Shown here in pieces: positions 26,939 to 61,123 of a stretch of 64,000 nt of DNA. The stretch covers positions 77,791 to 141,790 of the forward strand of contig JACPBG010000003.1 in NCBI GenBank assembly GCA_016180435.1, in the 5' to 3' direction. The position numbers were made by a program, and so were the translations under genes. Below the pieces are notes generated by a model. The model did no database searches. It had not been told where the DNA came from and saw nothing but the letters and a program-made list of their open reading frames with translations. This DNA comes from Candidatus Sungiibacteriota bacterium (GTDB lineage: Bacteria; Patescibacteriota; Minisyncoccia; Sungbacterales; HO2-52-23). Position 1 is the stretch's first letter. Every line of letters starts with the position of its first letter.

Positions 26939-29071
26939 ATGCCAAGAGAATATCCTTTAGAGAGTACCAGAGATATCGGCATTATTGCCCATATTGATGC
27001 CGGAAAAACGACCGTAACCGAGCGGGTGCTTTTTTATACCGGCGTATCGCATAAAATCGGCGAGGTGCATGAGGGCGATACGGTGATGGATTGGATGGAG
27101 CAAGAGCGCGAAAGGGGAATTACTATTACGGCGGCCGCAACGAATGTGTTTTGGGTGCCGACGCATGTCGGAGAACTTAGAACTGAGAACTTAGAACTTA
27201 GAAAAAAGAACGAATACAGAATAAATATCATAGATACTCCGGGACATATTGATTTTACCGTGGAGGTTCAGCGCTCACTTCGGGTATTGGATGGCGCGGT
27301 GGTGGTTTTTGACGGAGTGGCCGGAGTTGAGCCGCAATCCGAAACCGTCTGGCGCCAAGCCGATAAATTTAAAGTTCCGCGCATGTGTTTTATAAATAAG
27401 CTTGACCGCATGGGCGCGTCATTTGAGCGCTCGCTCAATTCCATTTATGAGCGACTAACCCCGAATGCGGTTTCGGTGGCAATACCCATAGGACACGAAC
27501 AGGAACACGAAGGCGTGATTGACCTTATGCGCATGAAGTCCGTGAAGTTTCTGGGAGATAAAGGAGAAAAACTTGAATTTGTTGAGATACCCGAGAATTT
27601 GAAATCCTATGCCGAGGAATGGCGCCATAAAATGGTTGAAAAAATTTCGGAAACGGATGACGCGCTTACGGATAAATATCTGGAAGGCAAAGAGATGACT
27701 GTCGAGGAACTGCGTGGCGCTTTACGCCGCGCGACCATTGGATATCGGCTGGTTCCGGTATTTTGCGGATCGGCGCTTAAAAATAAAGGCGTGCAGTTGA
27801 TGCTGGACGGTGTGGTTGATTATCTGCCCTCTCCTTTGGATATGCCGCCGGTAAAAGGAACTCATCCCAAAACCGGTGCGGAAGAAATTCGCGAAGCGAA
27901 AGATGATGCGCCATTTGCCGCGCTTGCTTTTAAATTGCAAACCGATCCTTATGTGGGACAACTTACATATTTTAGGGTTTATTCGGGCATGCTTAAAGCC
28001 GGATCTTATGTTTTAAATTCGGTAAATGGAGATCAGGAGAGGGTGGGGCGGATTTTGCGCATGCATGCCAATACCCGCGAGGAACTGAAAGAAATCGGCG
28101 CCGGAAATATCGGTGCGATTGTCGGTCTTAAAAATACCCGTACCGGAGATACGCTTTGCGATCCGGAGCATCCGGTTGTGCTTGAAAAAATCGTATTTCC
28201 CGAGCCGGTGGTATCTTTGAAAATTGAGCCCAAGACCAAGGCTGACCAGGAAAAAATGGGACTGGCCCTGCGGCGTCTGGGCGAGGAGGACCCGACATTT
28301 CGCATTAAAGGCGACATTGAGACCGGTGATACCATTATTTCGGGTATGGGTGAACTTCATTTGGAAATTATTGTGGATCGCATGAAGCGCGAATTTTCCG
28401 TGGAGGCCAATGTGGGCCGGCCGCAGGTGGCTTATAAAGAAACCATTAAAAAAACCGCGGAAGCGGAAGGAAAATATATTCGTCAATCAGGCGGACGCGG
28501 ACAGTACGGACATGCGTGGCTTCGGGTTGAGCCGCGCGAGCGCGGAAAGGGATTTGAATTTCTTGACGAGATCAAAGGCGGTATAATTCCGCAAGAATAC
28601 ATTCCGGCGATTGAAAAAGGGATTAAGGAGGCCATGGAAAAAGGTGTTTTGGCGGGGTACCCACTGGTTGATATGGCGGTCGCGGTTTATGACGGATCAT
28701 ATCATGAAGTGGATTCGTCCGAGGCCGCATTCAAAATCGCGGGTTCCATGGCTTTGCAGGAGTGCGTTAAGCGCGCGGGACTTGTGCTGCTTGAGCCGAT
28801 TATGAAAGTGGAGGTTGTGACTCCGGAGCAGTTTCTGGGCGAGGTTACCGGGGATTTGAATTCCAAGCGTGCGCGGATTGAAGAAATGTCCGAGCGCGGC
28901 CTGGGAATTAAGGTGATTGACTGCAAAGTTCCGCTTTCGGAAATGTTCGGATATGTTACGACTCTTCGTTCCTTGACGCAAGGCAGAGCCAGTTTTACTA
29001 TGGAATTTGATCACTACGAGGAAGTCCCGAATAATATTGCGCAGCTTATAATTGAAGGGAAGCGGCAGTGA
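26939..29071 (+). CDS. fusA: Elongation factor G
   Basis: [23 protein letters not shown] and all five EF-G domains. Contains a family F-encoded insertion ([15 protein letters not shown]) between G2 and G3. Confidence 0.95.
27172..27212. repeat. Family F heptad-repeat half-element, in-frame inside fusA
   Basis: gagaacttagaactgagaacttagaacttagaaaaaagaac. Confidence 0.7.
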
Positions 29072-29278
29072 TGCCAATCCAATGCGAATTTAATGTTTAC
29101 CCCGTTAGATAATAACCTTTTTTAAAAAGATGTGCTGTTGTTGTAAAAACCCTTTTAAAAATTTTATTGGTTGTCAAGAGATATCTAACGGGGCGAGTCT
29201 GGCGAATTGCGAATACTAAACACAAGATTTTATTAGCAATTTGTAGATTAGCATTTCATTTGTAGATTTGCATCATTG
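29066..29278. repeat. Family B element interrupted by a nested family G element
   Basis: cagtgatgccaatccaatgcgaatttaatg | G insert | tctggcgaattgcgaat...gcatttcatttgtagatttgcatca. Confidence 0.75.
29098..29193. repeat. Family G element nested in the B element
   Basis: tttaccccgttagataataacc ... agatatctaacggggcg. Confidence 0.7.
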
Positions 29279-29566
29279 CGTGCGAAGCACAAATAAAAAA
29301 TAGCGGCGTGGGACCGCATTAAGGCAAAAAGAGCGAGTCAATTTTAAACTTTAGTATATACACCCAACCGGCGCCTGCCACAATAATTGCAATAAAAATA
29401 AGAAAAGCGCCCCAGTCGAATTCGTAGATAAAACGTACGAGCGAAAATAAAATTTCAGAGATAGGACCTCGATCCGGCAGGGTGGGTAAAGAATATTCGT
29501 GCATAGCATTCTTTGTAATATATTATAGAGATCTATATTATGGACATATCAAAACTAAAAAATCTT

Positions 29567-29679
29567 GTCAACCCCGTTAGAGAGAAACAAACACATCAGT
29601 TATTGGGGAAAAGGTTATGTGTTAAAATAAAGGCGCTGTTTGCATGATTATCATTCCCTGTTTCTTTCTAACGGGGTCA
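29567..29679. repeat. Family G element (inserted after a promoter-like ttgtcaa)
   Basis: gtcaaccccgttagagagaaacaaac ... ctgtttctttctaacggggtcaa. Confidence 0.75.
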
Positions 29680-29723
29680 AGGCGAATCTTGACTTTATAT
29701 CAAAGATGGGATAAGTTTTTAAT

Positions 29724-29942
29724 ATGTCAATGGTCATAGAAAAAAAATATCACAAAAGTATTAGTGAGGTTTCGCGAAAGATGGGAATTAGAGAAAATGA
29801 TCTAGTGGGTCGTGCACTCGCTCTTTATTTAGATAGCGCAAAAAAAATTCTTGATGTAGAAAAAGAATTTAAGGCATGGGACGTTTTGAGCGATGAGTCG
29901 TTGGTTGGACTCGCTAAGCGTGTTCCAAGGCGGTCAATATGA
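29724..29942 (+). CDS. Putative antitoxin (partner of the MazF/PemK-like toxin)
   Basis: 72-aa ORF overlapping the toxin start by 4 nt (ATGA). Confidence 0.45.
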   Translation: MSMVIEKKYHKSISEVSRKMGIRENDLVGRALALYLDSAKKILDVEKEFKAWDVLSDESLVGLAKRVPRRSI

Positions 29943-30265
29943 AAAAGGGTGAAATTTGGTTGGTAGAAATTCCGGGCATTGACGGCCATGAACAGCGGGG
30001 ATTCCGCCCCGCGATTTTTATTGCGGACACCAAGACGGGCGTGGCCATAATTATTCCATGCACTTCTAATTTGCAAGCGCTTCGTTTCCCATTTACTATT
30101 CGTATTGAATCATCTCGCAGTAATGGATTAAATGAATTATCGGTTGCCCTGGTTCTTCAGCTTCGTGCTATTGATAAAAAGAGATTATTGAGAAAAATAG
30201 GACAACTTGATAATTCAGTTCTTAAAGAACTTGACGTGGTGATACGTAATCTTTTAGATTTATAG
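29939..30265 (+). CDS. MazF/PemK-family toxin endoribonuclease
   Basis: MKKGEIWLVEIPGIDGHEQRGFRPAIFIA has the typical PemK/MazF N-terminal signature. Confidence 0.75.
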   Translation: MKKGEIWLVEIPGIDGHEQRGFRPAIFIADTKTGVAIIIPCTSNLQALRFPFTIRIESSRSNGLNELSVALVLQLRAIDKKRLLRKIGQLDNSVLKELDVVIRNLLDL

Positions 30266-30382
30266 AGGACCAGTTTCGCGTACCCAAATAAAAATAGCGG
30301 CACGAGTCGAGGTAACCCATCGTGCATTCATTCTCGCTCTCCAATAAATAAGAACTACTATGGATATATCAAAATTAAAAAA

Positions 30383-30412
30383 TCTTGTCAAATATATATA
30401 GGAGATGGTATA
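30383..30412 (+). promoter_or_regulatory. Sigma70-like promoter for the hicBA cassette
   Basis: TTGTCA-N18-TATATT (cttgtcaaatatatataggagatggtatatt). The same ttgtcaa motif precedes the mazEF cassette. Confidence 0.4.
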
Positions 30413-30420
30413 TTGAAGAT

Positions 30421-30675
30421 ATGAAAAAACGACAAAAAATTAAAAAAGAAATCGCCACTTTTAATGCGGTATTTTTGGAAGAAAGCGATGGAGGATACAG
30501 CGTAAGTGTGCCTGCTTTGCCGGGCTGTTTTTCACAGGGTGATACCTTTGAAGCGGCCGTGGAAAATATAAAAGAGGCCATAGAACTTTATCTTGAAGAT
30601 GAATCTAAAGAGATTGATTTTTTGAAAGTTCGCCCTAAAAAAGAATTCATGGTACCAGTTGAACTTTATGCCTAA
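30421..30675 (+). CDS. hicB: HicB-family antitoxin
   Basis: FLEESDGGYSVSVPALPGCFSQGDTFEAAVENIKEAIELYLE matches the HicB/UPF0150 signature. Confidence 0.7.
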   Translation: MKKRQKIKKEIATFNAVFLEESDGGYSVSVPALPGCFSQGDTFEAAVENIKEAIELYLEDESKEIDFLKVRPKKEFMVPVELYA

Positions 30676-30895
30676 ATTGCCGCAGATTTCGGGAAAAGAG
30701 ATGGGGCGGGTTTTGGCTCGCCTCGGTTTTATATTCAAAAGCCAGAAAGGAAGTCATATGAAATTCATTCGCTTGCATGACGGCGCAAAAGAAATTATAG
30801 TAGTACCAAATCATAAAACGCTTCGTAAAGGAACATTTAGCGGCATATTAAAGCAGCTTAACATCACCTTTGAAAAATTACGCGAGCTGATGTAA
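30668..30895 (+). CDS. hicA: HicA-family toxin
   Basis: MPKLPQISGKEMGRVLARLGFIFKSQKGSHMKF matches the HicA/YcfA signature. Confidence 0.7.
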   Translation: MPKLPQISGKEMGRVLARLGFIFKSQKGSHMKFIRLHDGAKEIIVVPNHKTLRKGTFSGILKQLNITFEKLRELM

Positions 30896-30927
30896 TAAAA
30901 AATAGCGGTGCGGGTTCGTACACACAT

Positions 30928-31230
30928 ATGAGTGAAAAAATGGAAAAATTGAAAAGCGAAATATCTCCCGAAGAATATAAAAAAAAGCTTCTCACTGTTG
31001 CCGGCGAACTTTTCAAAGGGAAAGTCCCAAATTATTTCCTTGAATATCTTGATAATGATGAAATTGAAAGTGCCAGAGTATCACTTTTAGGCGCGATTGA
31101 TGCGTTCGTTTTTGGAAAAAATATATCAGATGAAGAAGCAAAAACAAAATATGAAATTCTGGGTTTTGATCCGGAGGAAGCAAGTAGGATCAGAAACTTA
31201 AGCAAAGCCAATAAAAGAAGATCTCAATAA
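30928..31230 (+). CDS. Hypothetical protein
   Basis: 100-aa ORF preceded by the same aaataaaaaatagcgg leader repeat. Confidence 0.4.
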   Translation: MSEKMEKLKSEISPEEYKKKLLTVAGELFKGKVPNYFLEYLDNDEIESARVSLLGAIDAFVFGKNISDEEAKTKYEILGFDPEEASRIRNLSKANKRRSQ

Positions 31231-31293
31231 TCAAATTTATTTTGCATTTTATTTTTTACGTTTTGTAGCAGAACAGCGATAAATTTTAAAAAT

Positions 31294-31593
31294 ATGGAGT
31301 GGGTAAAACTCAAAAATTTGGTAAAACAAAATGGAGATAAGTTTGTGTTGGTTGAAAATGGGGAGCCGGAAATTGTGATGATGTCTTTTCATGAATATCA
31401 GAAACTCGCTAATCATAATGCGAATACGGCGAATTTGCGTACGAATGTCACGAATCGCGAAGACGACAACTATTATATGGATGTATCCGCGGGCCGTTTG
31501 CCGGAAACCGAATTTGTATCACCCCACGAGTTAGAAGCGCCCGGACTTCCGGTGCGGCTTGAGGATATCCGGCTGGATGATCTGCCCATTTGA
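31294..31593 (+). CDS. Phd/YefM-like antitoxin-domain protein
   Basis: NGEPEIVMMSFHEYQKL resembles the Phd/YefM N-terminus; C-terminal extension; no toxin partner found. Confidence 0.45.
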   Translation: MEWVKLKNLVKQNGDKFVLVENGEPEIVMMSFHEYQKLANHNANTANLRTNVTNREDDNYYMDVSAGRLPETEFVSPHELEAPGLPVRLEDIRLDDLPI

Positions 31594-35376: not shown

Positions 35377-36015
35377 ATGAAAATCAAAGTTTACAACCAA
35401 GAAGGAAAAGAAGCAGGAACTGCGGATTTGCCGGACGGTGTGTTTGGGTTGAAGTGGAACGCGGATTTGGTGCATCAGGTGGTAACTGGCCAGGCCGCGA
35501 ATTTGCGTAGAGGCACGGCGCATGCTAAAGGCAGAAGTGAAGTTCGCGGAGGCGGGAGAAAACCCTGGCGGCAAAAAGGCACCGGTCGCGCGCGCCATGG
35601 CTCTATCCGTTCTCCCATTTGGATCGGAGGAGGGGTTACGCATGGCCCCTTGAAAGAAAAAAGTTATCATAAAAAAATCAACAAAAAGATGGCAAAAAAA
35701 GCCCTTTTTACGGCACTTTCCGCCAAAGCGCGGGACAATGAAATTGTTATTTTGGAGGACTTGAAATTCTCGGAAGCTAAAACCAGGTATGCCGCAGAAA
35801 TTTTCAGGAATTTATCGCAAGTTGACGCGCTCAAAGACATTGTAAAAGCCAAAACTCTGCTTGCGTTTCCGGAAAAAAGCCATGATTTAAAGCGCGCATT
35901 TCGTAATTTGCCGCGAGTCGGCATGGACGAGGCCAGGAATTTGAATGCGCATGAAGTATTGCAGTACCGTTATATTCTTATGTCCAAAGCTGTGTTAGGA
36001 ATATTTAAGCAGTGA
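35377..36015 (+). CDS. rplD: 50S ribosomal protein L4
   Basis: GGGRKPWRQKGTGRARHGSIRSPIWIGGGV. Stop TGA is contributed by the family B element. Confidence 0.9.
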   Translation: MKIKVYNQEGKEAGTADLPDGVFGLKWNADLVHQVVTGQAANLRRGTAHAKGRSEVRGGGRKPWRQKGTGRARHGSIRSPIWIGGGVTHGPLKEKSYHKKINKKMAKKALFTALSAKARDNEIVILEDLKFSEAKTRYAAEIFRNLSQVDALKDIVKAKTLLAFPEKSHDLKRAFRNLPRVGMDEARNLNAHEVLQYRYILMSKAVLGIFKQ

Positions 36016-36176: not shown

Positions 36177-36587
36177 ATGTCTTTACTCAATTTATTAAAA
36201 AGAAAAAAGGAGCCCGTAGTTAAAGAGAAAGAAGATAAATCTTTCGCTAAGCCAGTTTTAGTTGAACCAAAAGATTCTGTTCAGGATGAAACGGTAGAAA
36301 AAAAATCCGGGAAAGCGGTTTGGGGAGTTATAATCCGCCCGCATGTGACTGAGAAATCTTCCGATGCCGGAGGAGAAAATAAATATATGTTTATTGTGTC
36401 GCAAGGATCAAATAAGCGCTCAATTAAACAGGCGGTAGAGGGGCGTTATGGCGTCTCTGTTAAAAAGGTCGGGGTTCTAACCATGCCGGAAAAGAAACGC
36501 ATGCGTGGACGGCAAACCGGGTGGAGGCAGGGATTCAAGAAAGCAGTGGTAACGCTGAAAGAAGGGCAAGCCATAGAATTGCAGTGA
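36177..36587 (+). CDS. rplW: 50S ribosomal protein L23 (N-terminal extension)
   Basis: VIIRPHVTEKSSDAGGENKYMFIVSQGSNKRSIKQAVEGRYGVSVKKV. Confidence 0.8.
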   Translation: MSLLNLLKRKKEPVVKEKEDKSFAKPVLVEPKDSVQDETVEKKSGKAVWGVIIRPHVTEKSSDAGGENKYMFIVSQGSNKRSIKQAVEGRYGVSVKKVGVLTMPEKKRMRGRQTGWRQGFKKAVVTLKEGQAIELQ

Positions 36588-36702: not shown

Positions 36703-37533
36703 ATGAAAAAGTACAATCCCACATCATCCGCGCGGCGGCAAATGGAGACAGCGGAATATAAATCCGTACTTACCCGTACGGAGCCGTTGAAATCGCTTGC
36801 ATACGGAAGGAAGCGGGATGTGGGCAGGAATTCGTTTGGCCGCATAACCACGCGCCATAAAGGCGGCGGCGAGAAGCGTCTTTGGCGCGAAGTAGATTTT
36901 TTATATGATAAGCGCGATGTCCCGGCGAATGTAGAATCAATTGAATACGATCCGAATCGCTCGGCTTTTATTGCACTGCTTTCGTATCGCGACGGTGAAA
37001 AGCGTTATATTCTTGCTCCGCAGAATTTGCGTGTCGGAAATAAAGTCATAACATCCGAGCGCGCGCCGGTTGAAGTCGGGAATCGCATGCCTTTGAAGAA
37101 TATACCCGTAGGAACATTCGTATATAATGTTGAACTTGCTGAAGGTCGCGGAGCGCAATTAGTTCGTTCGGCCGGCGCGTATGCAACCGTTCTTGCCCAA
37201 GAGGGAGAATATACCCACCTTTCATTTCCGTCCAAGGAAATTAGAATGGTGCGAAGCGGCAATTGGGCTTCTGTCGGCGCGCTTTCCAATGAAGAGCATG
37301 GCAAAGTGATCTGGGGCAAAGCCGGAAGAATGCGCCATAAGGGGGTGCGGCCAACCGTACGGGGATCGGCCATGAATCCGGTGGATCATCCGCATGGCGG
37401 AGGCGAGGGCCGGACGCTGATCGGGCGCAGGCGAGGCCCGGCAACTCCGTGGGGAAAACCGGCTAGGGGTGTGAAAACCCGTAAGAGAAACAAGAAGTCG
37501 AGTAAATTTATTTTACATAAAAGAAGGAAGTAG
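36703..37533 (+). CDS. rplB: 50S ribosomal protein L2
   Basis: RNIPVGTFVYNVEL...GRGAQLVRSAG...VRGSAMNPVDHPHGGGEGR. Confidence 0.92.
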   Translation: MKKYNPTSSARRQMETAEYKSVLTRTEPLKSLAYGRKRDVGRNSFGRITTRHKGGGEKRLWREVDFLYDKRDVPANVESIEYDPNRSAFIALLSYRDGEKRYILAPQNLRVGNKVITSERAPVEVGNRMPLKNIPVGTFVYNVELAEGRGAQLVRSAGAYATVLAQEGEYTHLSFPSKEIRMVRSGNWASVGALSNEEHGKVIWGKAGRMRHKGVRPTVRGSAMNPVDHPHGGGEGRTLIGRRRGPATPWGKPARGVKTRKRNKKSSKFILHKRRK

Positions 37534-37652
37534 CCACAGATTATCACAGATTTCACTACAGATTGCCACAGATCACAGATAAGATTTCATTCTTCCGTTC
37601 CATCATCTGTGATCTGTGGACATCTGTGTAGCATCTGTGCGCATCTGTTGGA
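37534..37652. repeat. Family H element
   Basis: ccacagattatcacagatttcactacagattgccacagatcacagat ... catctgtgatctgtggacatctgtgtagcatctgtgcgcatctgttgg. Confidence 0.8.
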
Positions 37653-37655
37653 ATT

Positions 37656-37985
37656 ATGTCAAGATCATTAAAGAAGGGTCCATACGTTCATCCGTCTATA
37701 TTAAAACATATGTCCCGCATCCGAGCGGGTTCTAAAACCGTAATTAAAACCTGGGCTCGTGATTCTACGATTACCCCCGATATGGTGGGATATCTTTTTG
37801 GAGTACATAATGGTAGAAATTTTGTGGAATTTTACGTGTCCGAAGATATGGTCGGACATCACCTTGGAGAATTTTCTCCCACCCGGAAATTTGTCCGCCA
37901 TGGCGGAAGGATGCAAAAAGAGATGGAACAAAAAGCCGCAACGGCCGAAGCGGAAAAGGCTAAAGCAGCCACCGAGAAGAAATAG
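37656..37985 (+). CDS. rpsS: 30S ribosomal protein S19 (C-terminal extension)
   Basis: MSRSLKKGPYVHPSILK...GHHLGEFSPTRKF. Confidence 0.9.
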   Translation: MSRSLKKGPYVHPSILKHMSRIRAGSKTVIKTWARDSTITPDMVGYLFGVHNGRNFVEFYVSEDMVGHHLGEFSPTRKFVRHGGRMQKEMEQKAATAEAEKAKAATEKK

Positions 37986-38091
37986 AGCAGTGATGCCAAT
38001 CCCATGCGAATTTAATGCCAATCTACCAATTGCGAATATTCACATAATTCGCAATTCGCCAGATTAGCATTTCATTTGTAGATTTGCATCA
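37986..38091. repeat. Family B element
   Basis: agcagtgatgccaatcccatgcgaatttaatgccaatctaccaattgcgaat...agcatttcatttgtagatttgcatca. Confidence 0.8.
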
Positions 38092-38110
38092 TTGCAGTGC
38101 GAAGCACGAT

Positions 38111-38641
38111 ATGGAGATAAAAGCCAGTTTAAAAAATTTACATATTGCTCCGCGGAAAGTCCGGCTGGTTGCGGGACTGATAAAAGGCAAGGATATCGGA
38201 CGCGCCGAAGTGGAACTTGTTAATCTTGTGAAGCGATCTTCCAATCCGATTTTAAAACTTTTACGGTCCGCCGCTGCGAACGCCGCGCACAATTTTGGAT
38301 TACCCCGAGAATCATTGTATATCAAAGAAATAAAAGTAGATGCCGGACAAGTGTTTAAACGCTTTCGTGCTCGAGCTTTCGGCCGCGCCGCCCCTATACG
38401 AAAGCGAACAAGTCATGTATCATTAATTCTTGAATCTCGCGAGCACAACACTGCTCGTAAGCCAGGGCCCCGGTCAAATAGCGGGGCTGAGTTCCAAGGA
38501 GGCGTGGCAGAGCGGGAAATTTCGGCGGCACCTGAAAAAGAACGTAAATATGAGCGGGATTTAGGCGCAAGAAGGGGCCGGCCTTGGAAAACCAAACCGT
38601 TGAATTTTGTGAGAAGAGTGTTTAATAGAAAAGCAATTTAA
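38111..38641 (+). CDS. rplV: 50S ribosomal protein L22 (long C-terminal extension)
   Basis: MEIKASLKNLHIAPRKVRLVAGLIKGKDIGRAEVEL... Confidence 0.85.
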   Translation: MEIKASLKNLHIAPRKVRLVAGLIKGKDIGRAEVELVNLVKRSSNPILKLLRSAAANAAHNFGLPRESLYIKEIKVDAGQVFKRFRARAFGRAAPIRKRTSHVSLILESREHNTARKPGPRSNSGAEFQGGVAEREISAAPEKERKYERDLGARRGRPWKTKPLNFVRRVFNRKAI

Positions 38642-38725
<84 letters not shown>

Positions 38726-39463
38726 GTGACTCATCGAGTTCATCCATACATATTTCGGATTGGGCATACGACGAATTGGAAGTCGCGTTGGTTTAGGGCG
38801 CATAAATTTTCTGAATATTTGCGTGAAGATGCCATATTGCGCGAGTTGCTGGAGAAAAAATTGCGCAAGAATCATATTGAGGCGATTGAAATTGAACGAG
38901 CTCCCAATGTTGTGCGGATATTTGTAAGAACTGCGCGCCCCGGAATGATTATAGGACGCGGAGGAGAGGGATCCGAAAAATTAAAAAATGAGATTACCGC
39001 ATATCTTGCCAAAATACGTAAGAGATTCAATAGCCCCGTGGTTCAAAAAGAGGATCTGAAGCTTACCATTGAAGAGGTGCGCGCTCCGGAGACCCATGCC
39101 CTAATCGCAGGGCAGATGATCGCAGATGAGATTGAAAAGCGTATTCCATTTCGCCGCGTGTTAAAACAGGCCGTTGAGAGGATTTTTGGATCAAAGGGCG
39201 TTGAGGGCGTTAAAATAATGATAAAAGGGCGTCTGGACGGCAATGAAATTGCGCGCACCGAATGGCTGAAAAGAGGACGGATTCCGCTGCAAACCATTCG
39301 TGCCAACATAGATTTTGCGCATCGTACTGCCTATACCACATATGGGACGATTGGGATAAAAGTATGGATTTATAAAGGAGATATATTTGATAAGAACTTA
39401 GATCTTAGAACTAAGAACTTAGACAAGCATTTAGAACTTAGAACCAAGAACTTAGAAAATTAA
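38726..39463 (+). CDS. rpsC: 30S ribosomal protein S3 with repeat-encoded C-terminal tail
   Basis: KH and S3_C domains (IGRGGEGSEKLKNE...). The last 24 aa (DKNLDLRTKNLDKHLELRTKNLEN) are encoded by the family F element. Confidence 0.9.
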   Translation: MTHRVHPYIFRIGHTTNWKSRWFRAHKFSEYLREDAILRELLEKKLRKNHIEAIEIERAPNVVRIFVRTARPGMIIGRGGEGSEKLKNEITAYLAKIRKRFNSPVVQKEDLKLTIEEVRAPETHALIAGQMIADEIEKRIPFRRVLKQAVERIFGSKGVEGVKIMIKGRLDGNEIARTEWLKRGRIPLQTIRANIDFAHRTAYTTYGTIGIKVWIYKGDIFDKNLDLRTKNLDKHLELRTKNLEN

Positions 39464-39515
39464 ACTATTTACTAAGTTCTAAACGCTAAGTTCTGAGATC
39501 TTTTGCGAAGCAAAC
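39392..39515. repeat. Family F element overlapping the rpsC 3' end and the intergenic gap
   Basis: taagaacttagatcttagaactaagaacttagacaagcatttagaacttagaaccaagaacttagaaaattaaactatttactaagttctaaacgctaagttctgagatcttttgcgaagcaaac, then ATG of rplP. Confidence 0.8.
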
Positions 39516-39920
39516 ATGTTTCAGCCCAAAAAAGTAAAACATAGGAAGTGGCATAAAGGCAGGACCAAAGGCCTTGAATATAGATCCAATAATATAGCGT
39601 TTGGATCTTACGGTCTAAAAGGGCTTGAGGCCCGTTGGATTACTGCGCGTCAGATTGAGGCGGCGCGCCGCGCCATGACGCGATATGTCGAGCGCGGGGG
39701 AAAAATTTGGATCCGTATTTTTCCGGATAAGCCGGTTACTAAAAAACCCCCCGAGGTGACGCTGGGAGGAGGAAAAGGCGCGGTGGATCATTATGTGGTT
39801 CCGGTGCGGCCCGGCAAAATACTTTTTGAAATAGACGGCGTGTTACCGGATATTGCGGAGGAGGCATTGCGTTTGGCTGCTCATAAGATGCCGATAAAGA
39901 CAAAGATTATAAGGAAATAA
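39516..39920 (+). CDS. rplP: 50S ribosomal protein L16
   Basis: [19 protein letters not shown]...[28 protein letters not shown]. Confidence 0.9.
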
Positions 39921-40020
39921 ACCCTGTACACAAATCCACAAATGAGCACACAAATCCACAAATGGAATAAGTATTCGTGATTCGTGGATTGGTGTAAACA
40001 TTCGTTGATTAGTGTGTTTT
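39921..40020. repeat. Family C element
   Basis: accctgtacacaaatccacaaatgagcacacaaatccacaaatgg...cgtgattcgtggattggtgtaaacattcgttgattagtgtgtttt, then ATG. Confidence 0.8.
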
Positions 40021-40200
40021 ATGAAAATTGCAGAACTGCGTCAAAAAACAAAGGAGGAGTTACAGGAGCTGTTGCACGAGAAGTGCGCCCGGATTGATGA
40101 ATTAAGGCCGCTTTTGCATCAAAAAAAGGTGAAAAATGTTAAAGAATTATCCAGAGTTAAAAAAGATATAGCGAGAATAATGACATTATTACATTTGTGA
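40021..40200 (+). CDS. rpmC: 50S ribosomal protein L29
   Basis: MKIAELRQKTKEELQELLHEKCARIDELR. Confidence 0.85.
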   Translation: MKIAELRQKTKEELQELLHEKCARIDELRPLLHQKKVKNVKELSRVKKDIARIMTLLHL

Positions 40201-40202
40201 TA

Positions 40203-40303
40203 TCAACGAATAACGAATCTTGCGCGAATTTACGAATAAACGAATTTATGGTGAGTAGAGTCGAACCATTCGTATATTCGTAATAAATTCGTTATTCGAT
40301 GAT
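40203..40303. repeat. Family A' element
   Basis: atcaacgaataacgaatcttgcgcgaatttacgaataaacgaattt...ccattcgtatattcgtaataaattcgttattcgatgat. Confidence 0.75.
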
Positions 40304-40317
40304 AGAGCGAAGCGATC

Positions 40318-40608
40318 ATGAGGAAACTTAAAGGTATTGTCACATCCGATAAGATGCAAAAGACCGTCGGAGTGCGAGTAGATCGGTTAAAAAAACACCC
40401 AAAATACGGGAAATATTTTCGTACAACGCAAAAGTTTAAAGCACATGACGAAAAAGGGGAATATAAAATTGGCGATCTGGTTATTATTCAGGAAACAAGG
40501 CCGCTGTCCAAAGATAAAAGATGGCGTGCAGTTTCTTTAGTAAAACGCGGGATTGTGGAAACAGATGAGAAGGAAGAAAGCAGTGATGCCAATCCGATGC
40601 GAATTTAA
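40318..40608 (+). CDS. rpsQ: 30S ribosomal protein S17, C-terminus extended into the B element
   Basis: KGIVTSDKMQKTVGVRVDRLKKHPKYGK. The final SSDANPMRI* is encoded by family B sequence. Confidence 0.85.
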   Translation: MRKLKGIVTSDKMQKTVGVRVDRLKKHPKYGKYFRTTQKFKAHDEKGEYKIGDLVIIQETRPLSKDKRWRAVSLVKRGIVETDEKEESSDANPMRI

Positions 40609-40743
40609 TGCCAATCTGGCGAATTGCCAATAATTATTCTTCGAGTGTAATCGAGAAGTACCTTAGGGTATTATTCTCGACAAGCTCGAATGATAACCGA
40701 TTCGCAATTTGTAGATTAGCATAAGATTTGTAGATTGGCATCA
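40579..40743. repeat. Family B element, long variant
   Basis: agcagtgatgccaatccgatgcgaatttaatgccaatctggcgaattgccaat...ttcttcgagtgtaatcgagaag...gattggcatca. Confidence 0.8.
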
Positions 40744-40750
40744 TATTAAA

Positions 40751-41116
40751 ATGATCCAGCTTCGTTCTATGGTAAAAGTGGCAGATAATTCTGGGGCTGT
40801 TTTGCTCCAAGTTTTTCAGGTATCGCGCGGATCCCGCCATCGTTATGCGCGTATTGGCGATATGGTTGTTGCTTCGGTAAAAATTGCCGAACCTGGCAAG
40901 GCGGTTAAGAAAAAAGACGTTGTACACGCAGTGATTGTGCGAACGCGATCCCCGTATCGTCGCAAGGATGGGACCTATGTGCGTTTTGATGATAATGCCG
41001 CAGTAATACTTGACGGGACAGAACCCAAAGGAGGAAGGATTTTTGGTCCGGTAGCCCGGGAATTGCGCGATAGAGGATTTACAAAAATTGTTTCATTGGC
41101 GTCAGAAGTCGTATAA
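40751..41116 (+). CDS. rplN: 50S ribosomal protein L14
   Basis: [16 protein letters not shown]...[11 protein letters not shown]. Confidence 0.9.
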
Positions 41117-41280
41117 AGCAGTGATGCCAATCCTATGCGAATTTAATGCCAATCCGGCGAATTGCCAATAATTATTCTTCGAGTGAAATCGAGATGATAC
41201 CTTAATGTATATTCTCGACAAGCTCGAATAGTAACGATTCGTAATTTGTAGATTAGCATAAGATTTGTAGATTGGCATCA
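41117..41280. repeat. Family B element, long variant
   Basis: agcagtgatgccaatcctatgcgaatttaatgccaatccggcgaattgccaat...gattggcatca. Confidence 0.8.
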
Positions 41281-41287
41281 TATTAGA

Positions 41288-41596
41288 ATGAAAATAAAAA
41301 AAGGCGACACCGTAAAAATAACTTCGGGTAATGATAAAGGGAAGACCGGCAAGGTCATCCGGGCTTTCGGGAATGCAGGAAAAATCGTAGTGGAGGGTGT
41401 GAATATCCGCAAGAAACACGTCCGTCCGAAGCGCCAGGGACAGAAAGGAGAAATAGTCCGAATCCCGGCGCCATTTTTAGTATCAAGGGCCATGTTGCTT
41501 TGTCCCAAATGTGGGAAGCTCATTCGTCCGGGGATGATATTGCATGAAGACTCCGTAAAGGTCCGTATATGCAAAAAATGCAGTGCGGAGATTTAA
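41288..41596 (+). CDS. rplX: 50S ribosomal protein L24 with C-terminal zinc-ribbon extension
   Basis: MKIKKGDTVKITSGNDKGKTGKV (KOW motif); CPKCG...CKKC tail. Confidence 0.85.
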   Translation: MKIKKGDTVKITSGNDKGKTGKVIRAFGNAGKIVVEGVNIRKKHVRPKRQGQKGEIVRIPAPFLVSRAMLLCPKCGKLIRPGMILHEDSVKVRICKKCSAEI

Positions 41597-41606
41597 ATTT
41601 TAAATT

Positions 41607-42149
41607 ATGCCGATCCAATCTTTACAAGAGCGATATAATAAAGACATTGTGCCGGCAATGGTGAAGCGATTCGGATATAAAAATATAATGGCCGTTCCAC
41701 GGATCCAAAAGGTTGTTTTGAATTGCGGAGTTGGGAAATTGCGCGACGAGAAACAGCGGGAAGAAGTGATCAAGTTTTTGACTTTAATTGCCGGTCAAAA
41801 GCCTTCGCCGCGCTCTGCGAAAAAAGCCATAGCGTCATTTAAAACGCGTAAAGGTCTTGTTATAGGATATCAAGTGACATTACGGGGAAGGCGCATGTAT
41901 GATTTCATTTCCAGGTTCACAGATATAGCGCTCCCGCGCACCCGTGATTTTAGGGGAATTGATGCAAAATCGTTTGATAGCGGCGGGAATTTGACAATTG
42001 GAATTAAAGAGCATATAGTATTTCCTGAAATGATCGGAGAGGATTACCATTTTTTGTTCGGCCTTGAAGTTACGATAGTGACCACGGCTCCAAGGCGAGA
42101 AGAGGGGGTTGAATTATTAAAGTTGATGGGATTCCCAATAAAGCAGTGA
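41607..42149 (+). CDS. rplE: 50S ribosomal protein L5
   Basis: NIMAVPRIQKVVLNCGVG...GMDITIVTTA-like core. Stop TGA is contributed by the B element. Confidence 0.9.
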   Translation: MPIQSLQERYNKDIVPAMVKRFGYKNIMAVPRIQKVVLNCGVGKLRDEKQREEVIKFLTLIAGQKPSPRSAKKAIASFKTRKGLVIGYQVTLRGRRMYDFISRFTDIALPRTRDFRGIDAKSFDSGGNLTIGIKEHIVFPEMIGEDYHFLFGLEVTIVTTAPRREEGVELLKLMGFPIKQ

Positions 42150-42256
42150 TGCCAATCCGATGCGAATTTAATGCCAATCTGGCGAATTGCGAATACCAAA
42201 TAAAGGAGTTTATTAGCAATTTGTAGATTAGCATAAGATTTGTAGATTGGCATCAT
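42141..42256. repeat. Family B element
   Basis: agcagtgatgccaatccgatgcgaatttaatgccaatctggcgaattgcgaat...gcataagatttgtagattggcatca. Confidence 0.8.
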
Positions 42257-42257
42257 A

Positions 42258-42446
42258 TTGATGGCTAAACAATCTGTCATAGCAAGGGCCCTAAAAAAAC
42301 CCAAATACAAATCCCGCTTAGTGCGCCGGTGTTTCCGTTGTGGCCGTAAACGCGGATATATGAGGGCGTTTGACGCGTGCCGGATTTGTTTCAGAGAAAT
42401 GGCAAACAGAGGGGAAATACCCGGAATAAAGAAAAGCAGCTGGTAA
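42258..42446 (+). CDS. rpsZ: 30S ribosomal protein S14 type Z (zinc-binding)
   Basis: 62 aa; [20 protein letters not shown]. Confidence 0.85.
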
Positions 42447-42453
42447 CTGATAA

Positions 42454-42538
42454 CTTTACGAAATACGAATCATTACGAATGTACGAATACATTTTATCAG
42501 ATTATTCGTAAATTCGTATATATTAGTATTTCGTAAAG
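42454..42538. repeat. Family A element
   Basis: ctttacgaaatacgaatcattacgaatgtacgaatac...attcgtaaattcgtatatattagtatttcgtaaag. Confidence 0.8.
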
Positions 42539-42547
42539 ATAAAGATT

Positions 42548-42934
42548 ATGGATCCTATTTCAGATATGTTCATCCGCATAAAAAATGCGCAAAAAGCGGG
42601 GCATGAAACTGCCTCCGTTCCTTATTCTAAATTCAAGTTTGAATTGATTAAAGTTCTTGAGCGAAGCGGATATATAAATAGTGCGGAACGTCGCGGGAAA
42701 CGTATAAAACGTTTTATAGAAGTTGGTTTAAAGTACCATAACGGATCTCCTGCTGTTTCCGGAATCCGTCTGCTTTCACGCCCGAGCAGGCGCGTATATG
42801 CAAGCGCCAAAGAACTGTTGGGAATTGCGCGTCACGGCGGGGTTGTAGCGGTGAGTACTTCTAAGGGCGTTATGTCCCATAAAGATGCGTTGAAGGGAAA
42901 GGTCGGAGGACAGCTGATAGCGGAAATATGGTGA
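42548..42934 (+). CDS. rpsH: 30S ribosomal protein S8
   Basis: MDPISDMFIRIKNAQKAGHETASVPYSK. Confidence 0.9.
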   Translation: MDPISDMFIRIKNAQKAGHETASVPYSKFKFELIKVLERSGYINSAERRGKRIKRFIEVGLKYHNGSPAVSGIRLLSRPSRRVYASAKELLGIARHGGVVAVSTSKGVMSHKDALKGKVGGQLIAEIW

Positions 42935-42943
42935 GATCTCTCG

Positions 42944-43170
42944 TTGCAGCGTTTTTAGATATTTTGCTTTCTCGACAAGTCCTCGGCCGCTCCTGCGGCG
43001 GCCTGCGGGGTCGGGCAAACACCGAGCACTGAATTTGTTCTAAAAATAGTTCCAGAGTTTGTCGAGGGACTACCTTGAAAGAAATCGGCATTGTATTGTG
43101 GGTTGAGTGCTCGGACCAAGCTGTTTGTCCTCCCATTGTCTCGAAAGTAAAATATCCAAAACGCATATAT
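42944..43170 (+). repeat. Family E structured element (copy E3, long variant)
   Basis: ~30-bp outer stem gcgtttttagatattttgctttctcgacaa / ttgtctcgaaagtaaaatatccaaaacgc; ggccgctcctgcggcggcc; stem gggcaaaca/tgtttgtcc; internal aaatagttccagagtttgtcgagggactacc insert shared with E1. Confidence 0.75.
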
Positions 43171-43197
43171 ACTCAATTAATAAGTTTAATATAATGT

Positions 43198-43740
43198 ATG
43201 AGTAGAATCGGTAAAAAACCAATTTTAATACCGCCTGGCGTTGAGGTGTCAATTCGTGATAATGTAGTTACGGTTAAGGGGCCCAAAGGAGAACTTTCAC
43301 GGATATTACATTCGGAAATTTCAGCCGATATAAATGATAAAACTATAGTTGTTTCTACGGCTGGAGTTAGTAAAAAATCATCTGCACTTTGGGGTCTTTC
43401 TCGATCGCTGATAGCCAATATGGTTGAAGGAGTAACTAACGCCTTTCGAAAAAAACTGGATTTTGAGGGTATTGGATTCAGGGCGAGTATTGATGGCGGC
43501 GCTTTGCAGATGCAACTTGGTTTCTCGCATCCGGTGCGAATCGAACCGCCTGAAGGCATTGCGTTTTTAGTTGAAAAAAACGTGATTACTATTTTAGGAA
43601 TTGATAAGGAGGCGGTAGGTAATACGGCGGCGCGCATTAGGCGGCTGAAGCCAGTAGAGCCGTATAAAGGGAAGGGCATTAAGTATCAAGGGGAGATAGT
43701 GAAAAGAAAAGCCGGAAAAAAAGCGGTCGCGTCTGCATAA
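43198..43740 (+). CDS. rplF: 50S ribosomal protein L6
   Basis: MSRIGKKPILIPPGVEVSIRDNVVTVKGPKGEL. Confidence 0.9.
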   Translation: MSRIGKKPILIPPGVEVSIRDNVVTVKGPKGELSRILHSEISADINDKTIVVSTAGVSKKSSALWGLSRSLIANMVEGVTNAFRKKLDFEGIGFRASIDGGALQMQLGFSHPVRIEPPEGIAFLVEKNVITILGIDKEAVGNTAARIRRLKPVEPYKGKGIKYQGEIVKRKAGKKAVASA

Positions 43741-43862
43741 TGCGAGATTTTAGAACTTAGAACCAAGAACTTAGACAAGCATTTAGAACTTAGAACCAAG
43801 AACTTAGAAAATTAAACTATTTACTAAGTTCTAAGATCTAAGATCTAAGTTCTCGTGCGAGA
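43741..43862. repeat. Family F palindromic element
   Basis: tgcgagattttagaacttagaaccaagaacttagacaagcatttagaacttagaaccaagaacttagaaaattaaactatttactaagttctaagatctaagatctaagttctcgtgcgagatc. Confidence 0.8.
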
Positions 43863-43870
43863 TCAAATTT

Positions 43871-44236
43871 ATGGGATTGAAACAGGAAAAAAGAGATCGT
43901 CGACACAAGCGTGTACGAAGTCGAATCCGAGGAACGAGCACGCGGCCGCGCCTTTCGGTCTTTCGCTCTAACCGCCATATTGCGGCCCAGCTTATTGATG
44001 ATGAAGCCGGCAGGACGCTTTTATCCGTTAGCGATATGGATATCGGTACGGGCAAGAAAAAAAATTCCCAATCCGGATCATTATACGTCCGCGCCGAAAA
44101 AGTCGGTACTCTGCTGGCAGAAAAAGCTCAGAAACTTTCTATGGCGTCGGTTGTGTTTGACCGCGGGGGATATGCGTATCATGGCGCCGTTAAAGCCTTG
44201 GCGGATGGAGCAAGGAAAGGAGGATTACAATTTTAA
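43871..44236 (+). CDS. rplR: 50S ribosomal protein L18
   Basis: RPRLSVFRSNRHIAAQLIDDEAGRTL...VFDRGGYAYHGAVKALADGARKGGL. Confidence 0.85.
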   Translation: MGLKQEKRDRRHKRVRSRIRGTSTRPRLSVFRSNRHIAAQLIDDEAGRTLLSVSDMDIGTGKKKNSQSGSLYVRAEKVGTLLAEKAQKLSMASVVFDRGGYAYHGAVKALADGARKGGLQF

Positions 44237-44239
44237 TTG

Positions 44240-44326
44240 ATTTTACGAAATACGAATCATTACAAATATACGAATACGTTTTGGTAAGTTGATTCGTAAA
44301 TTCGTACCTATTCGTATTTCGTAAAG
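44240..44326. repeat. Family A element
   Basis: ttttacgaaatacgaatcattacaaatatacgaatacgttttggtaagttgattcgtaaattcgtacctattcgtatttcgtaaag. Confidence 0.85.
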
Positions 44327-44328
44327 GC

Positions 44329-44826
44329 ATGGCAAGACCCCGAGAGCGAAAATTGAATTCGGAGTTTGAACGTGAGCGGTCGGAATTCGACCAGCGCGTT
44401 TTAGATATCAGGCGGACGGCCCGTGTGGTTGCGGGCGGCCGGCGTTTTAGTTTTCGGGCAGCCGTCATTGTGGGTAATCGCAAGGGCCGAATCGGGTTTG
44501 GGATGGGAAAGGGAATTGATGTATCCGCTGCCGTGGAAAAAGCCGTTCATCGGGCCAAAAAAGAATTGATAAATATTCCGCTCACCAAGAGCTTTTCAAT
44601 ACCTCACGGAGTCAGCGGCAAGGCGGCCGCCGCTCGGGTAATTTTGAAGCCGGCGGTTGAAGGCCGGGGACTTGTGGCTGGCGGCCCGGTACGGGCGATC
44701 GCGGACCTCGCAGGGATTAAGAATCTTACCGCCAAAATTCTTGGCCGTACTCCGAATAAATTGAACAATGCTAAAGCGGTGATAGAAGCGTTAAAACACT
44801 TGAAGAATTTAGAACAGAGAACTTAA
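44329..44826 (+). CDS. rpsE: 30S ribosomal protein S5
   Basis: RTARVVAGGRRFSFRAAVIVGNRKGRIGFGMGKG. Confidence 0.9.
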   Translation: MARPRERKLNSEFERERSEFDQRVLDIRRTARVVAGGRRFSFRAAVIVGNRKGRIGFGMGKGIDVSAAVEKAVHRAKKELINIPLTKSFSIPHGVSGKAAAARVILKPAVEGRGLVAGGPVRAIADLAGIKNLTAKILGRTPNKLNNAKAVIEALKHLKNLEQRT

Positions 44827-48051: not shown

Positions 48052-48857
48052 TTACGATTAAAACTACAGAAGAAATTGCTATATTGCGAGAAGGAGGCAG
48101 ACGGCTCGCAGAAATTTTGCAAAAGCTGGTTGAGGCGTCTTGTCCCGGCGTATCGGATTTTGAGCTTGATGTTCTGGCGGAGGAACTTATTTTAGCATGC
48201 GGAGGAAAACCGGCATTTAAGGGATACAGGATCAAGGAAACGCGCGTTGCGTTTCCCGCTTCCATTTGCGTGTCGATTAATGACGAGGTGGTGCACGGGA
48301 TCCCGCGCAAAAACCGGATCTTAAAAGATGGTGATATTGTCGGGATTGATATAGGAATGCAGTGGCCGAATCAAGAACTTAGAACTAAGAACTTAGAACT
48401 TAGAAATATAAGAGGAATGTATACGGATATGGCGGTAACTATCGGGGTGGGTAAAATTTCGGCAGAAGCCGAACGGCTGATTCAAACAACCCGATCTGCA
48501 TTAGATGTCGGTATTCGGACGGTACGTCCGGGTGCGCATGTCGGAGATATAGGATGCGCCGTGGAGGAGGTTCTAAAACGCGAAAAACTCGGGATTATAA
48601 GGGATCTTGCCGGACACGGCGTGGGGCATGATCTTCATGAAGAGCCGCTTATTCCGAATTACGGAATGCGCGGCGCCGGAGTAGAATTAAAAGAGGGCAT
48701 GGTTATTGCTATTGAACCCATGGCAACTTTGGGGGGATGGCGGATTAAGCTTGATCGAGATGAGTGGACGATCCGTACCGCTGATCGGAGTTTGGCGGCG
48801 CATTTTGAGCATACTTTAGTTGTTACAAAAAGCGGAGCGGAGATATTGACGAAATAG
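48048..48857 (+). CDS. map: Methionine aminopeptidase type I with repeat-encoded insertion
   Basis: Pita-bread fold with metal ligands (DIGMQ ... HGVGHDLHEEP ... AIEPM). Family F insert QELRTKNLELRN lies after DIG. Confidence 0.85.
   Translation: MITIKTTEEIAILREGGRRLAEILQKLVEASCPGVSDFELDVLAEELILACGGKPAFKGYRIKETRVAFPASICVSINDEVVHGIPRKNRILKDGDIVGIDIGMQWPNQELRTKNLELRNIRGMYTDMAVTIGVGKISAEAERLIQTTRSALDVGIRTVRPGAHVGDIGCAVEEVLKREKLGIIRDLAGHGVGHDLHEEPLIPNYGMRGAGVELKEGMVIAIEPMATLGGWRIKLDRDEWTIRTADRSLAAHFEHTLVVTKSGAEILTK
48373..48406. repeat. Family F heptad-repeat half-element, in-frame inside map
   Basis: caagaacttagaactaagaacttagaacttagaaat. Confidence 0.7.
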
Positions 48858-55983: not shown

Positions 55984-56107
55984 ATCCTGTACACAAATCC
56001 ACTAATGAGCACACAAATCCACAAATGGGATAAGTAGTCGTGATTCGTGGATTGGTGTATCAATTCGTGGATTGGTGTATCAATTCGTGGATTGGTGTGT
56101 TTGTTTT
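55984..56107. repeat. Family C element with triplicated right-arm iteron
   Basis: atcctgtacacaaatccactaatgagcacacaaatccacaaatggg...cgtgattcgtggattggtgtatcaattcgtggattggtgtatcaattcgtggattggtgtgtttg. Confidence 0.8.
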
Positions 56108-56108
56108 T

Positions 56109-56543: not shown

Positions 56544-56576
56544 CAAAAACCCGCGTAGGCGGATTTTTGTTATCCT

Positions 56577-56600
56577 TGATGCATCTATAAGCCGAATTCT
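56577..56600. terminator. Bidirectional hairpin terminator (rnhA on plus, rnpB on minus)
   Basis: aaaaacccgcgtaggcggatttttg. Confidence 0.6.
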
Positions 56601-56603
56601 GTT

Positions 56604-61030: not shown

Positions 61031-61123
61031 ACGAGAACTTAGAACCAAGAACTAAGAACTTAGAAAATTAAACTACTCGCTAAGTTCTAAGATCTATATG
61101 CTAAGTTCTTTTGCGAAGCAAAC
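61031..61123. repeat. Family F palindromic element with start-proximal tail
   Basis: cgagaacttagaaccaagaactaagaacttagaaaattaaactactcgctaagttctaagatctatatgctaagttcttttgcgaagcaaac, then GTG of atpA. Confidence 0.8.

Follow-up and report, generated by a model that had tools for sequence, protein, structure and literature searches.

We found that the gene of a ribosomal protein S3 runs on, past the end of the conserved protein core, into a hairpin repeat that also occurs elsewhere in the same DNA, so that the last residues of the encoded protein come from repeat sequence. The stretch analysed here (the window) comprises 64,000 nucleotides and holds the str-S10-spc ribosomal gene cluster of a metagenome-assembled genome (MAG) of Candidatus Sungbacteria, which belong to the candidate phyla radiation (CPR; Parcubacteria), in the gene order found in relatives. 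The repeat, family F, is a hairpin of about 125 nt in whose arms the heptamer AGAACTT, or its complement, is repeated in tandem in short arrays. Comparison with other S3 proteins and with other F copies indicated that the tail is young and repeat-derived. We consider it a tolerated by-product of repeat colonisation and no adaptation, with a probability of about 0.8; as judged from the sequence, it would be translated and nearly neutral.

The rpsC product was 100% identical to a protein in NCBI whose annotation is 30S ribosomal protein S3, Candidatus Sungbacteria, and the Pfam domains KH_2 and Ribosomal_S3_C span its residues 38-215. The nucleotides at 39392-39463 read exactly as quoted in the preliminary description of this DNA, and the open reading frame (ORF) of rpsC ends in GDIFDKNLDLRTKNLDKHLELRTKNLEN followed by the stop; the core terminus is GIKVWIYKGDIF, and DKNLDLRTKNLDKHLELRTKNLEN comes after it. 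No stop codon lies between the conserved S3 core, whose F221 is nearly invariant among 45 relatives, and the repeat, and 24 more codons are read before TAA 39461-39463. The gene and the parts of its 3′ end are as follows.

38726-39463, plus strand: rpsC (ribosomal protein S3), 245 aa including the repeat-encoded tail (ORF listing)
39386-39394, plus strand: end of the S3 core, F221 (TTT, 39386-39388), and D222 K223 (GAT AAG), from homologue comparison
39393-39424, plus strand: module 1 of the family F left arm (AGAACTT AGATCTT AGAACTA AGAACTT AGAC), in the translated part; from Tandem Repeats Finder (TRF), copy alignment and fold
39425-39432, plus strand: junction AAGCATTT, read directly and also present in the rplF-rplR copy
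39433-39460, plus strand: module 2 of the left arm (AGAACTT AGAACCA AGAACTT AGAAAAT), in the translated part and paired with the right arm (fold)
39461-39466, plus strand: apical loop TAAACT with the rpsC stop TAA (39461-39463), from sequence and fold
39467-39500, plus strand: family F right arm ATTTACTAAGTTCTAAACGCTAAGTTCTGAGATC, non-coding (inverted repeats I1, I7 and I8; fold)
39500-39515, plus strand: conserved 3′ flank CTTTTGCGAAGCAAAC (16 nt), which contains GCGAAGC and abuts the rplP start
39516-39920, plus strand: rplP (ribosomal protein L16), from the ORF listing, tblastn to the L16 of a relative and Pfam Ribosomal_L16 on the identical Logan gene

TRF reported 39393-39457 as a period-7 array of 9.6 copies with the consensus AGAACTT. 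In the predicted fold, the left arm at 39427-39460 pairs with 39467-39500 (minimum free energy -38.5 kcal/mol; z = -5.7 against shuffles), with the stop codon in the six-base loop, while module 1 is unpaired with the right arm. The two left-arm modules stay in phase because the link between them, AGAC plus AAGCATTT, is 12 nt long. The CTTTTGCGAAGCAAAC-type flank also follows the F copies before rpsC (38711-38725) and atpA (61109-61123), and therefore the rpsC-rplP element does extend to the rplP ATG; the earlier statement that the palindrome spans the stop codon and continues to this ATG was thus correct. The flank at 39500-39515 carries no Shine-Dalgarno motif before rplP.

That the S3 tail is encoded by a family F copy, as first proposed from the letters alone, was supported by the period-7 array and by a column-wise match to a non-coding F copy in the rplF-rplR spacer. 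The two copies differ at three positions of the first module only, and the non-repetitive junction and loop match as well. We then compared S3 C-termini in relatives, using the 119 most similar proteins in a collection of 5.8 billion proteins and counting the tail after KG(D/E)(I/V)F. Tails in these homologues had 1-19 aa (median 7), none of the 119 carried an LRT or NLE motif in its tail, and the 24-aa tail in the window was the longest. The two closest lineages (87-88% identity) end in SKTT (L001) and EKSEIRNPKF (L007). Since several relatives end in FDK or FDKG directly before the stop, D222 and K223 are probably native, and the preliminary description of a 24-aa repeat tail has to be narrowed accordingly: a tail of this length is present, but probably only about 22 of its 24 codons come from the F element.

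We further studied why the frame is open. Read in triplets, a 7-nt period yields the cyclic peptide ELRT-stop-NL, the same in all three frames, and in a perfect AGAACTT array, whichever the frame, TAG recurs every seven codons and no more than six codons stay open. In the rpsC copy, AAG stands at both expected TAG positions, through one AGAACTA and one AGAACCA unit; throughout the translated copies the in-frame TAG is replaced by AAG or GAG (AGAACTA, AGAACCA and AGAACTG units). The AGAACCA unit is also present in non-coding F copies, in whose hairpins it makes an internal loop; its opening of the frame is therefore the chance effect of a subfamily trait and gives no evidence of coding selection. 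Past F221, the remaining two frames close after 3 and 0 codons. The tail is not statistically unusual in its length, since 12% of composition-matched shuffles made from the 127-nt segment had no stop for 24 codons or longer. It had also been pointed out that the element uses the same reading frame in rpsC, fusA and map. The peptide phase, ELRT(E/K)NLELR, does match, but this is no independent coincidence, because 7 and 3 are coprime and a shared phase is largely automatic for heptamers.

Alignments of the protein with the 55 solved S3 chains all lost homology at query residues 215-229, in most cases at 220-224. It is in its C-terminus that S3 varies, and many solved ribosomes leave this end unmodelled; the natural protein can be as long as 275 aa, and about 206 residues are all that many of the deposited chains contain. 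The C-terminal tails of E. coli and Thermus S3 are disordered and lie on the solvent side of the 30S head. The tail described here is hydrophilic with a 7-residue periodicity, and an AlphaFold2 model (45 homologues) predicted residues 222-244, with modest confidence (pLDDT 56-74), to be one helix projecting from a well-predicted core.

Family F is abundant in the window. The 11-mer AGAACTTAGAA, with at most one mismatch, had 44 matches against 0.78 expected from shuffles, none of which reached 44, and these matches were grouped at about ten loci; TRF likewise found period-7 arrays of 4.3-9.6 copies at 10 loci. Intergenic copies have a common layout, in which a left arm of about 4.5 heptamers is followed by an A-rich loop, the complementary right arm and the flank TTTTGCG(A/G)AGCAA(A/G)C up to the next start codon. 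There are five hairpin copies of about 70-125 nt within the 64 kb, and F copies stop 14-17 nt short of the rpsC, rplP, rplR and atpA starts. Single arms occur within genes. The copies outside the rpsC-rplP spacer are listed here.

38644-38725, plus strand: F copy in the rplV-rpsC spacer, with four perfect AGAACTT units, loop, right arm and a 3′ flank reaching the rpsC GTG; z = -5.7
43741-43870, plus strand: F copy in the rplF-rplR spacer, non-coding; its left arm matches the rpsC copy column for column
61034-61123, plus strand: F copy in the spacer before atpA, from motif matches and alignment
56938-57006, no strand assigned: complete F hairpin within rnpB (56572-57090, minus strand), which encodes RNase P RNA
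27172-27203, plus strand: single-arm F array in fusA, 4.6 units, in frame, TAG replaced by GAG
48374-48405, plus strand: single-arm F array in map (methionine aminopeptidase, MetAP), 4.6 units, in frame, read as QELRTKNLELRN, TAG replaced by AAG
12768-12799, minus strand: single-arm F array in opposite orientation in a metallo-beta-lactamase (MBL)-fold gene beside comEC, in frame (SLSSKFFVLSS), TAA replaced
44804-44826, plus strand: degenerate F array forming the last seven codons and the stop of rpsE (KNLEQRT)

The window thus has four in-frame coding F copies (fusA, map, the MBL-fold gene and the rpsC tail) and one in rnpB. Given that such genes are essential, the in-frame copies are presumably translated as added peptide. 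The rnpB hairpin is part of a 119-nt insert that takes the place of 15 positions in the Rfam class-A model, and the gene still scores 131 bits. No Rfam 15 family reached its gathering threshold for the F hairpins, and only RNase P RNA and two tRNAs were found in the window. The F hairpin was also considered as an intrinsic terminator and rejected: none was called in a consensus scan of 37500-44500, the stems are A+T-rich and only TTTT follows.

The orthologous rpsC-rplP locus was then taken from seven related lineages (L001, L007, L128-L131 and L178). Three of them (L130, L128 and L178) have a compact junction with no element, as in L178, where GDVFDKG and the stop are followed by TAAAGGAGGATG. 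In the other four, the spacer holds a palindromic short-period repeat unrelated to F, and the S3 tail and stop lie within its left arm:

L001: CCAAAACTACCTAAATTTTCT, tail SKTT
L007: (TCCGAAA)3, tail EKSEIRNPKF
L129: (CCTAATT)n, tail QKMPNS
L131: TTCAAAG-type units

These loci indicate that the S3 tail is the longest example of a general habit, whereby spacer repeats abut the gene core and supply the last residues and the stop. The preliminary description had the element fused to the end of rpsC; this holds, since the frame reads through the left arm, with the refinement that the fusion is no one-off. Within the window, elements supply the ends of S5, S17, L4, L23, L5 and elongation factor G (EF-G). 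A second family, beginning AGCAGTGATGCCAATCC and present in at least 13 copies, gives the final CAG TGA (Q and stop) of fusA, rplD, rplW and rplE, and in another frame the last nine residues of S17 (SSDANPMRI):

29065-29071, 36009-36015, 36581-36587, 42143-42149 and 40579-40608: gene ends formed by the AGCAGTGATGCCAATCC family

Moreover, the rplF-rplR F copy (43738-43812 region) is in frame with rplF, with the single TAA 43738-43740 between them; in its absence L6 would gain the tail CEILELRTKNLDKHLELRTKNLEN, a near-copy of the S3 tail. Among the matches listed, rpsE of a Harrisonbacteria genome (L052, 2200-2460) ends in an AGAACTT hairpin with the tail TKNLELRTKDGEAGKVETKVISS.

Nearly all operon spacers hold such elements, both here and in the 87%-identical relative, and the family at a given spacer often differs. 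In L001-L006, which have identical S3, the rplC-rplD, rplE-rpsN and rplW-rplB spacers vary, with the whole element replaced in two and a difference of one 19-nt unit in the third; one rplC-rplD allele of this set belongs to a CACAGAT-type hairpin family, as does the rplC-rplD spacer of the window. An apparent 180-nt insertion at rplF-rplR in L001, relative to L002, was discarded as a scaffold gap of Ns. An in-frame (AGAACTT)4 array, read as QNLELRIQNLA, was found among the matches listed in a conserved enzyme-like ORF of Parcubacteria GW2011_GWA2_45_30 (L022, 4380-4440; L001 lineage), and therefore family F is present in the 87%-identical relative, at another site.

Wider searches were less specific. 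A scan of genome contigs with AGAACTTAGAACTTAGAA matched at least 120 genomes of many phyla and was too unspecific for a census. A protein search with a synthetic (KNLELRT)n peptide was uninformative, with only two weak matches of E above 1. The exact loop had no match in a metagenome scan, and a looser hairpin pattern found 46 metagenomic loci (L132-L177), mostly on rumen contigs of 45-55% G+C with no relatives of the source genome. Hairpins of AGAACTT/AGAGCTT and AGTTGGY heptamers were seen among the listed matches in non-CPR bacteria, both on these metagenome contigs and in several Fibrobacter and Acidobacteriota genomes (among L008-L087). As these bacteria are unrelated, the architecture of AGAACTT-array hairpins is wider than Sungbacteria.

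We next examined the loops of MetAP and EF-G that carry F arrays in the window. In the 120 nearest MetAPs, the loop between DIGMxWP and TDMA has 6-9 residues in 15 proteins and 18-21 residues in 53, and its inserts belong to many unrelated families with a 7-residue periodicity. Three MetAP arrays can be placed side by side:

Window, 48374-48405: AAGAACTT AGAACTA AGAACTT AGAACTT AGAAAT
L179, 1900-1945: AAGAATTT AGAATTA AGAATTT AGAATTT AGAAAT
L178, 10340-10385: AAAAATTT AGAATTA AGGATTT AGAATTT AGAAAT

All three are in one register and keep the stop-avoiding A of unit 2, while the four units have C in the window and T in L178 and L179. Such a concerted unit change needs a cause other than single-unit slippage, such as ectopic conversion or a unit-recognising factor, because slippage would frameshift the essential map gene. 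Other units occupy the MetAP loop elsewhere, namely (AAGTATC)4 in L001 (20540-20580), (GGCAAAT)4.5 in L129 and other arrays in L131. Between RGITI and DTPGH, the EF-G loop is without an array in L130, whereas it has F in the window and (AGCAAAT)3 in L129; in L129, the MetAP (GGCAAAT) and EF-G (AGCAAAT) loops carry similar units.

The starts of the genes were inspected as well. GGAG, GAGG or AGGA occurs within 25 nt upstream of 4 of the 46 start codons in the window, and spacer repeats end 2-15 nt before start codons. GCGAAGC stands directly 5′ of the rplP, rplB, rpsQ and atpA starts, and GCGGAGC before rpsC; L178 has AGGAGG before rplP.

Based on these results, we propose that the rpsC-rplP spacer received its F element as a copy, which was either inserted or brought in by recombinational replacement. 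It would have come to adjoin the S3 core right after D222-K223, with the native short tail and stop lost in the same event, and the rpsC frame would then have run on through the left arm to the first in-frame stop, the TAA of the apical loop. The outcome would be an S3 with about 22 added residues on its variable C-terminus. Import rather than local slippage is favoured as the origin because non-repetitive parts are common to several loci, and tolerance of such copies is supported by the in-frame F arrays, with their stop removed, inside the essential genes fusA and map. Several points weigh against this proposal. This S3 is carried by a single assembly (a cluster of one sequence from one contig), and an independent Logan contig, seen in 6 samples and identical from 39455 onward, starts at that position inside the array, so that the loop, the right arm and rplP are confirmed by it, whereas the number of heptamers, on which the frame depends, is not. 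A search for transposase, RAYT or insertion sequence (IS) genes among the 40 non-ribosomal ORFs of the 64 kb found none, with only MazF/PemK, HicB and RNase H/RVT_3 domains detected; with no transposase or other mobilising gene in the window, we can only infer the insertion step. A clear target-site duplication was not found, and an 8-nt direct repeat, TGCGAGAT, flanks only the rplF-rplR copy. Finally, the MetAP array is positionally conserved across lineages with its units changed in concert, which fits poorly with a purely selfish and ephemeral element and makes a function of the array possible.

Other explanations of the tail were weighed against the same data. If the number of heptamers were wrong through an assembly or sequencing error, each unit would shift the frame by one and the true S3 would end a few codons past F221. 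The early closure of the other two frames is in keeping with this, as are the near-exact duplication of most of the tail-coding stretch at rplF-rplR, a classic cause of assembly trouble, and the break of the Logan contig within the array, with one source contig only. However, the canonical S10-spc gene order continues on both sides, the right side is identical in the independent assembly, arrays of the same family keep the frame cleanly in fusA and map, essential genes that an error would disrupt, and relatives assembled independently present the same situation with other repeats, so that we consider an artefact quite improbable. Growth of the array in place, from a seed heptamer at the rpsC 3′ end that was multiplied by replication slippage as in a microsatellite, would agree with the different-unit heptamer arrays that related genomes have in the same spacers and protein loops and with the single 19-nt unit that differs between L002 and L001; heptanucleotide repeats are also reported to be the commonest long simple repeats in bacteria, for which polymerase slippage has been proposed (PMC4679880). 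Yet the rpsC copy shares the junction AGACAAGCATTT, the loop AAAATTAAACTATTTACT and the 3′ flank TTTTGCGAAGCAAAC with three other loci. These shared parts are non-repetitive, and copying between loci is therefore required and local growth is insufficient, which makes an origin in place very unlikely.

A selected function, in which the hairpin or the tail is kept for S3/L16 coupling, for mRNA processing or stability, or for initiation without a Shine-Dalgarno motif, is unlikely in our view but has more to recommend it. Shine-Dalgarno-like motifs are rare at the starts in the window, right arms end 2-15 nt from start codons, the same GCGAAGC-bearing 3′ flank precedes three start codons, the position and register of the MetAP array are conserved across lineages, and the arrays resemble TAACTGA arrays, which are proposed targets of a post-transcriptional regulator (PMC4679880). 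On the other hand, the element-free rpsC-rplP junctions of L130, L128 and L178 argue that the rpsC-rplP copy is dispensable, spacer elements are swapped whole between strains with identical S3, and nothing links the protein tail itself to any function. The reverse direction, with the tail as an older S3 extension from which the non-coding F copies were derived, starts from the fact that the rplF-rplR copy keeps the same open frame, one stop codon short of tailing L6, and that one of the two was copied from the other. But the tail is absent from the S3 of the two closest lineages, F arrays are found in rnpB, fusA, map, the MBL-fold gene, spacers and an unrelated gene of GW2011_GWA2_45_30, and the tail has not diverged from the non-coding copy over most of its length; we therefore regard this direction as extremely improbable. 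Taken together, these considerations favour a tail that arrived with an imported repeat and has been tolerated.

It is a tentative, and on balance doubtful, extension of this reading that the S3 tail follows incidentally from a system, so far undescribed, of Sungbacteria and related CPR bacteria, whose arrays of about 32 nt (about 4.5 heptamers) have set places in the genome. These places would be the spacers just before starts with no Shine-Dalgarno motif and, in MetAP and EF-G, the same surface loops, and the units would be genome-specific and would change in concert. The concerted pattern suggests a trans-acting factor that recognises or rewrites the heptamer, or genome-wide conversion, possibly with a role in mRNA processing or in translation initiation without a Shine-Dalgarno motif. 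If such an active mechanism were true, it would bear on polycistronic expression and on the concerted evolution of repeat families. In any case, a core ribosomal protein appears to have gained C-terminal sequence straight from non-coding repeat DNA, and such repeat clutter is unexpected in a lineage with a very small genome. We consider the wider pattern, with repeats setting stops and abutting starts and with unit differences in orthologous loops, a more interesting lead than the tail. For annotators the S3 case is a caution that gene ends in CPR bacteria, and some internal loops, may be repeat-encoded and assembly-sensitive.

Two other parts of the window are recorded here. Between fusA and the next conserved gene lie about 2.3 kb (29072-31347), where a relative has 126 nt; this region has genes for a PemK/MazF toxin (29939-30265) and a HicB-like antitoxin (30385-30675) and also contains inverted repeats of the CCCCGTTAGA type. 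At 56043-56098, a perfect 20-nt tandem repeat, ATTCGTGGATTGGTGTATCA, in 2.8 copies lies at the 5′ end of an ORF with an RNase H/RVT_3 domain (56040-56543).

Finally, we compared family F with known systems; no CPR-specific description of such repeats was found in the literature. Rickettsia palindromic elements (RPE) occur in frame within housekeeping genes as palindromic repeats (Ogata et al. 2000, as presented in PMC10969869). As far as they are described there, they resemble F as many-copy palindromes of about 100-150 nt that are found in conserved genes, spacers and RNA genes and add tolerated surface peptides. However, F arms are tandem heptamer arrays whereas RPE arms are unique sequence; coding-internal F copies are single 32-nt arms whereas RPE insert as whole palindromes; and the S3 copy replaces the C-terminus and gives the stop, whereas RPE are internal insertions. 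With a CPR bacterium, Candidatus Sungbacteria, as its host, F is likened to RPE by these described features, and membership is not claimed. Like REP and REPIN, which are mobilised by RAYT (PMC3116915), F forms short inverted-pair hairpins that are abundant in spacers, with families differing between related genomes at the same spacer. REP, however, are strictly extragenic imperfect palindromes with no heptamer periodicity, and we rejected membership of F in this class because of its four in-frame coding copies and the one in rnpB. In comparison with miniature inverted-repeat transposable elements (MITE), F has arms that are inverted arrays, the direct repeat TGCGAGAT at the rplF-rplR copy only, and no IS in the window.

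At the protein level, the tail is similar to natural C-terminal extensions of uS3, such as those of the 274-275-aa mycobacterial S3 in solved structures, in that extra residues follow the VWIYKG core and length variation is tolerated. Such extensions are lineage-wide protein features, unlike the F tail, which was found in a single genome and is nucleotide-identical to a non-coding repeat.

The closest parallels are other heptamer arrays. Cyanobacterial STRR heptamers were reportedly described by Mazel and colleagues in 1990; STRR units include CCCCAGT, TTGGTCA and CAACAGT. TAACTGA arrays of Beggiatoaceae, cyanobacteria and Bacteroidetes have 2-6 heptamers, lie mostly just 5′ of starts that lack a Shine-Dalgarno motif and carry stops in each of the three frames; for that reason some run over the end of the preceding ORF, few are within ORFs, and the families are lineage-specific (PMC4679880). 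F is like this type in being tandem 7-nt arrays at many loci, near starts with no Shine-Dalgarno motif and with stops in every frame. It differs from both TAACTGA and STRR repeats in its unit, AGAACTT, and in having arrays in inverted pairs that form a long hairpin. It further differs from the TAACTGA type in its in-frame copies within essential genes, where the stop has been mutated away, and in the extent of ORF overlap, which is 22 codons here compared with one or two units in the published cases (PMC4679880). By these sequence features, family F is a different family of the same kind as the heptanucleotide arrays, distinct from the TAACTGA type and, on its unit, paired-arm architecture and host, probably no RPE.

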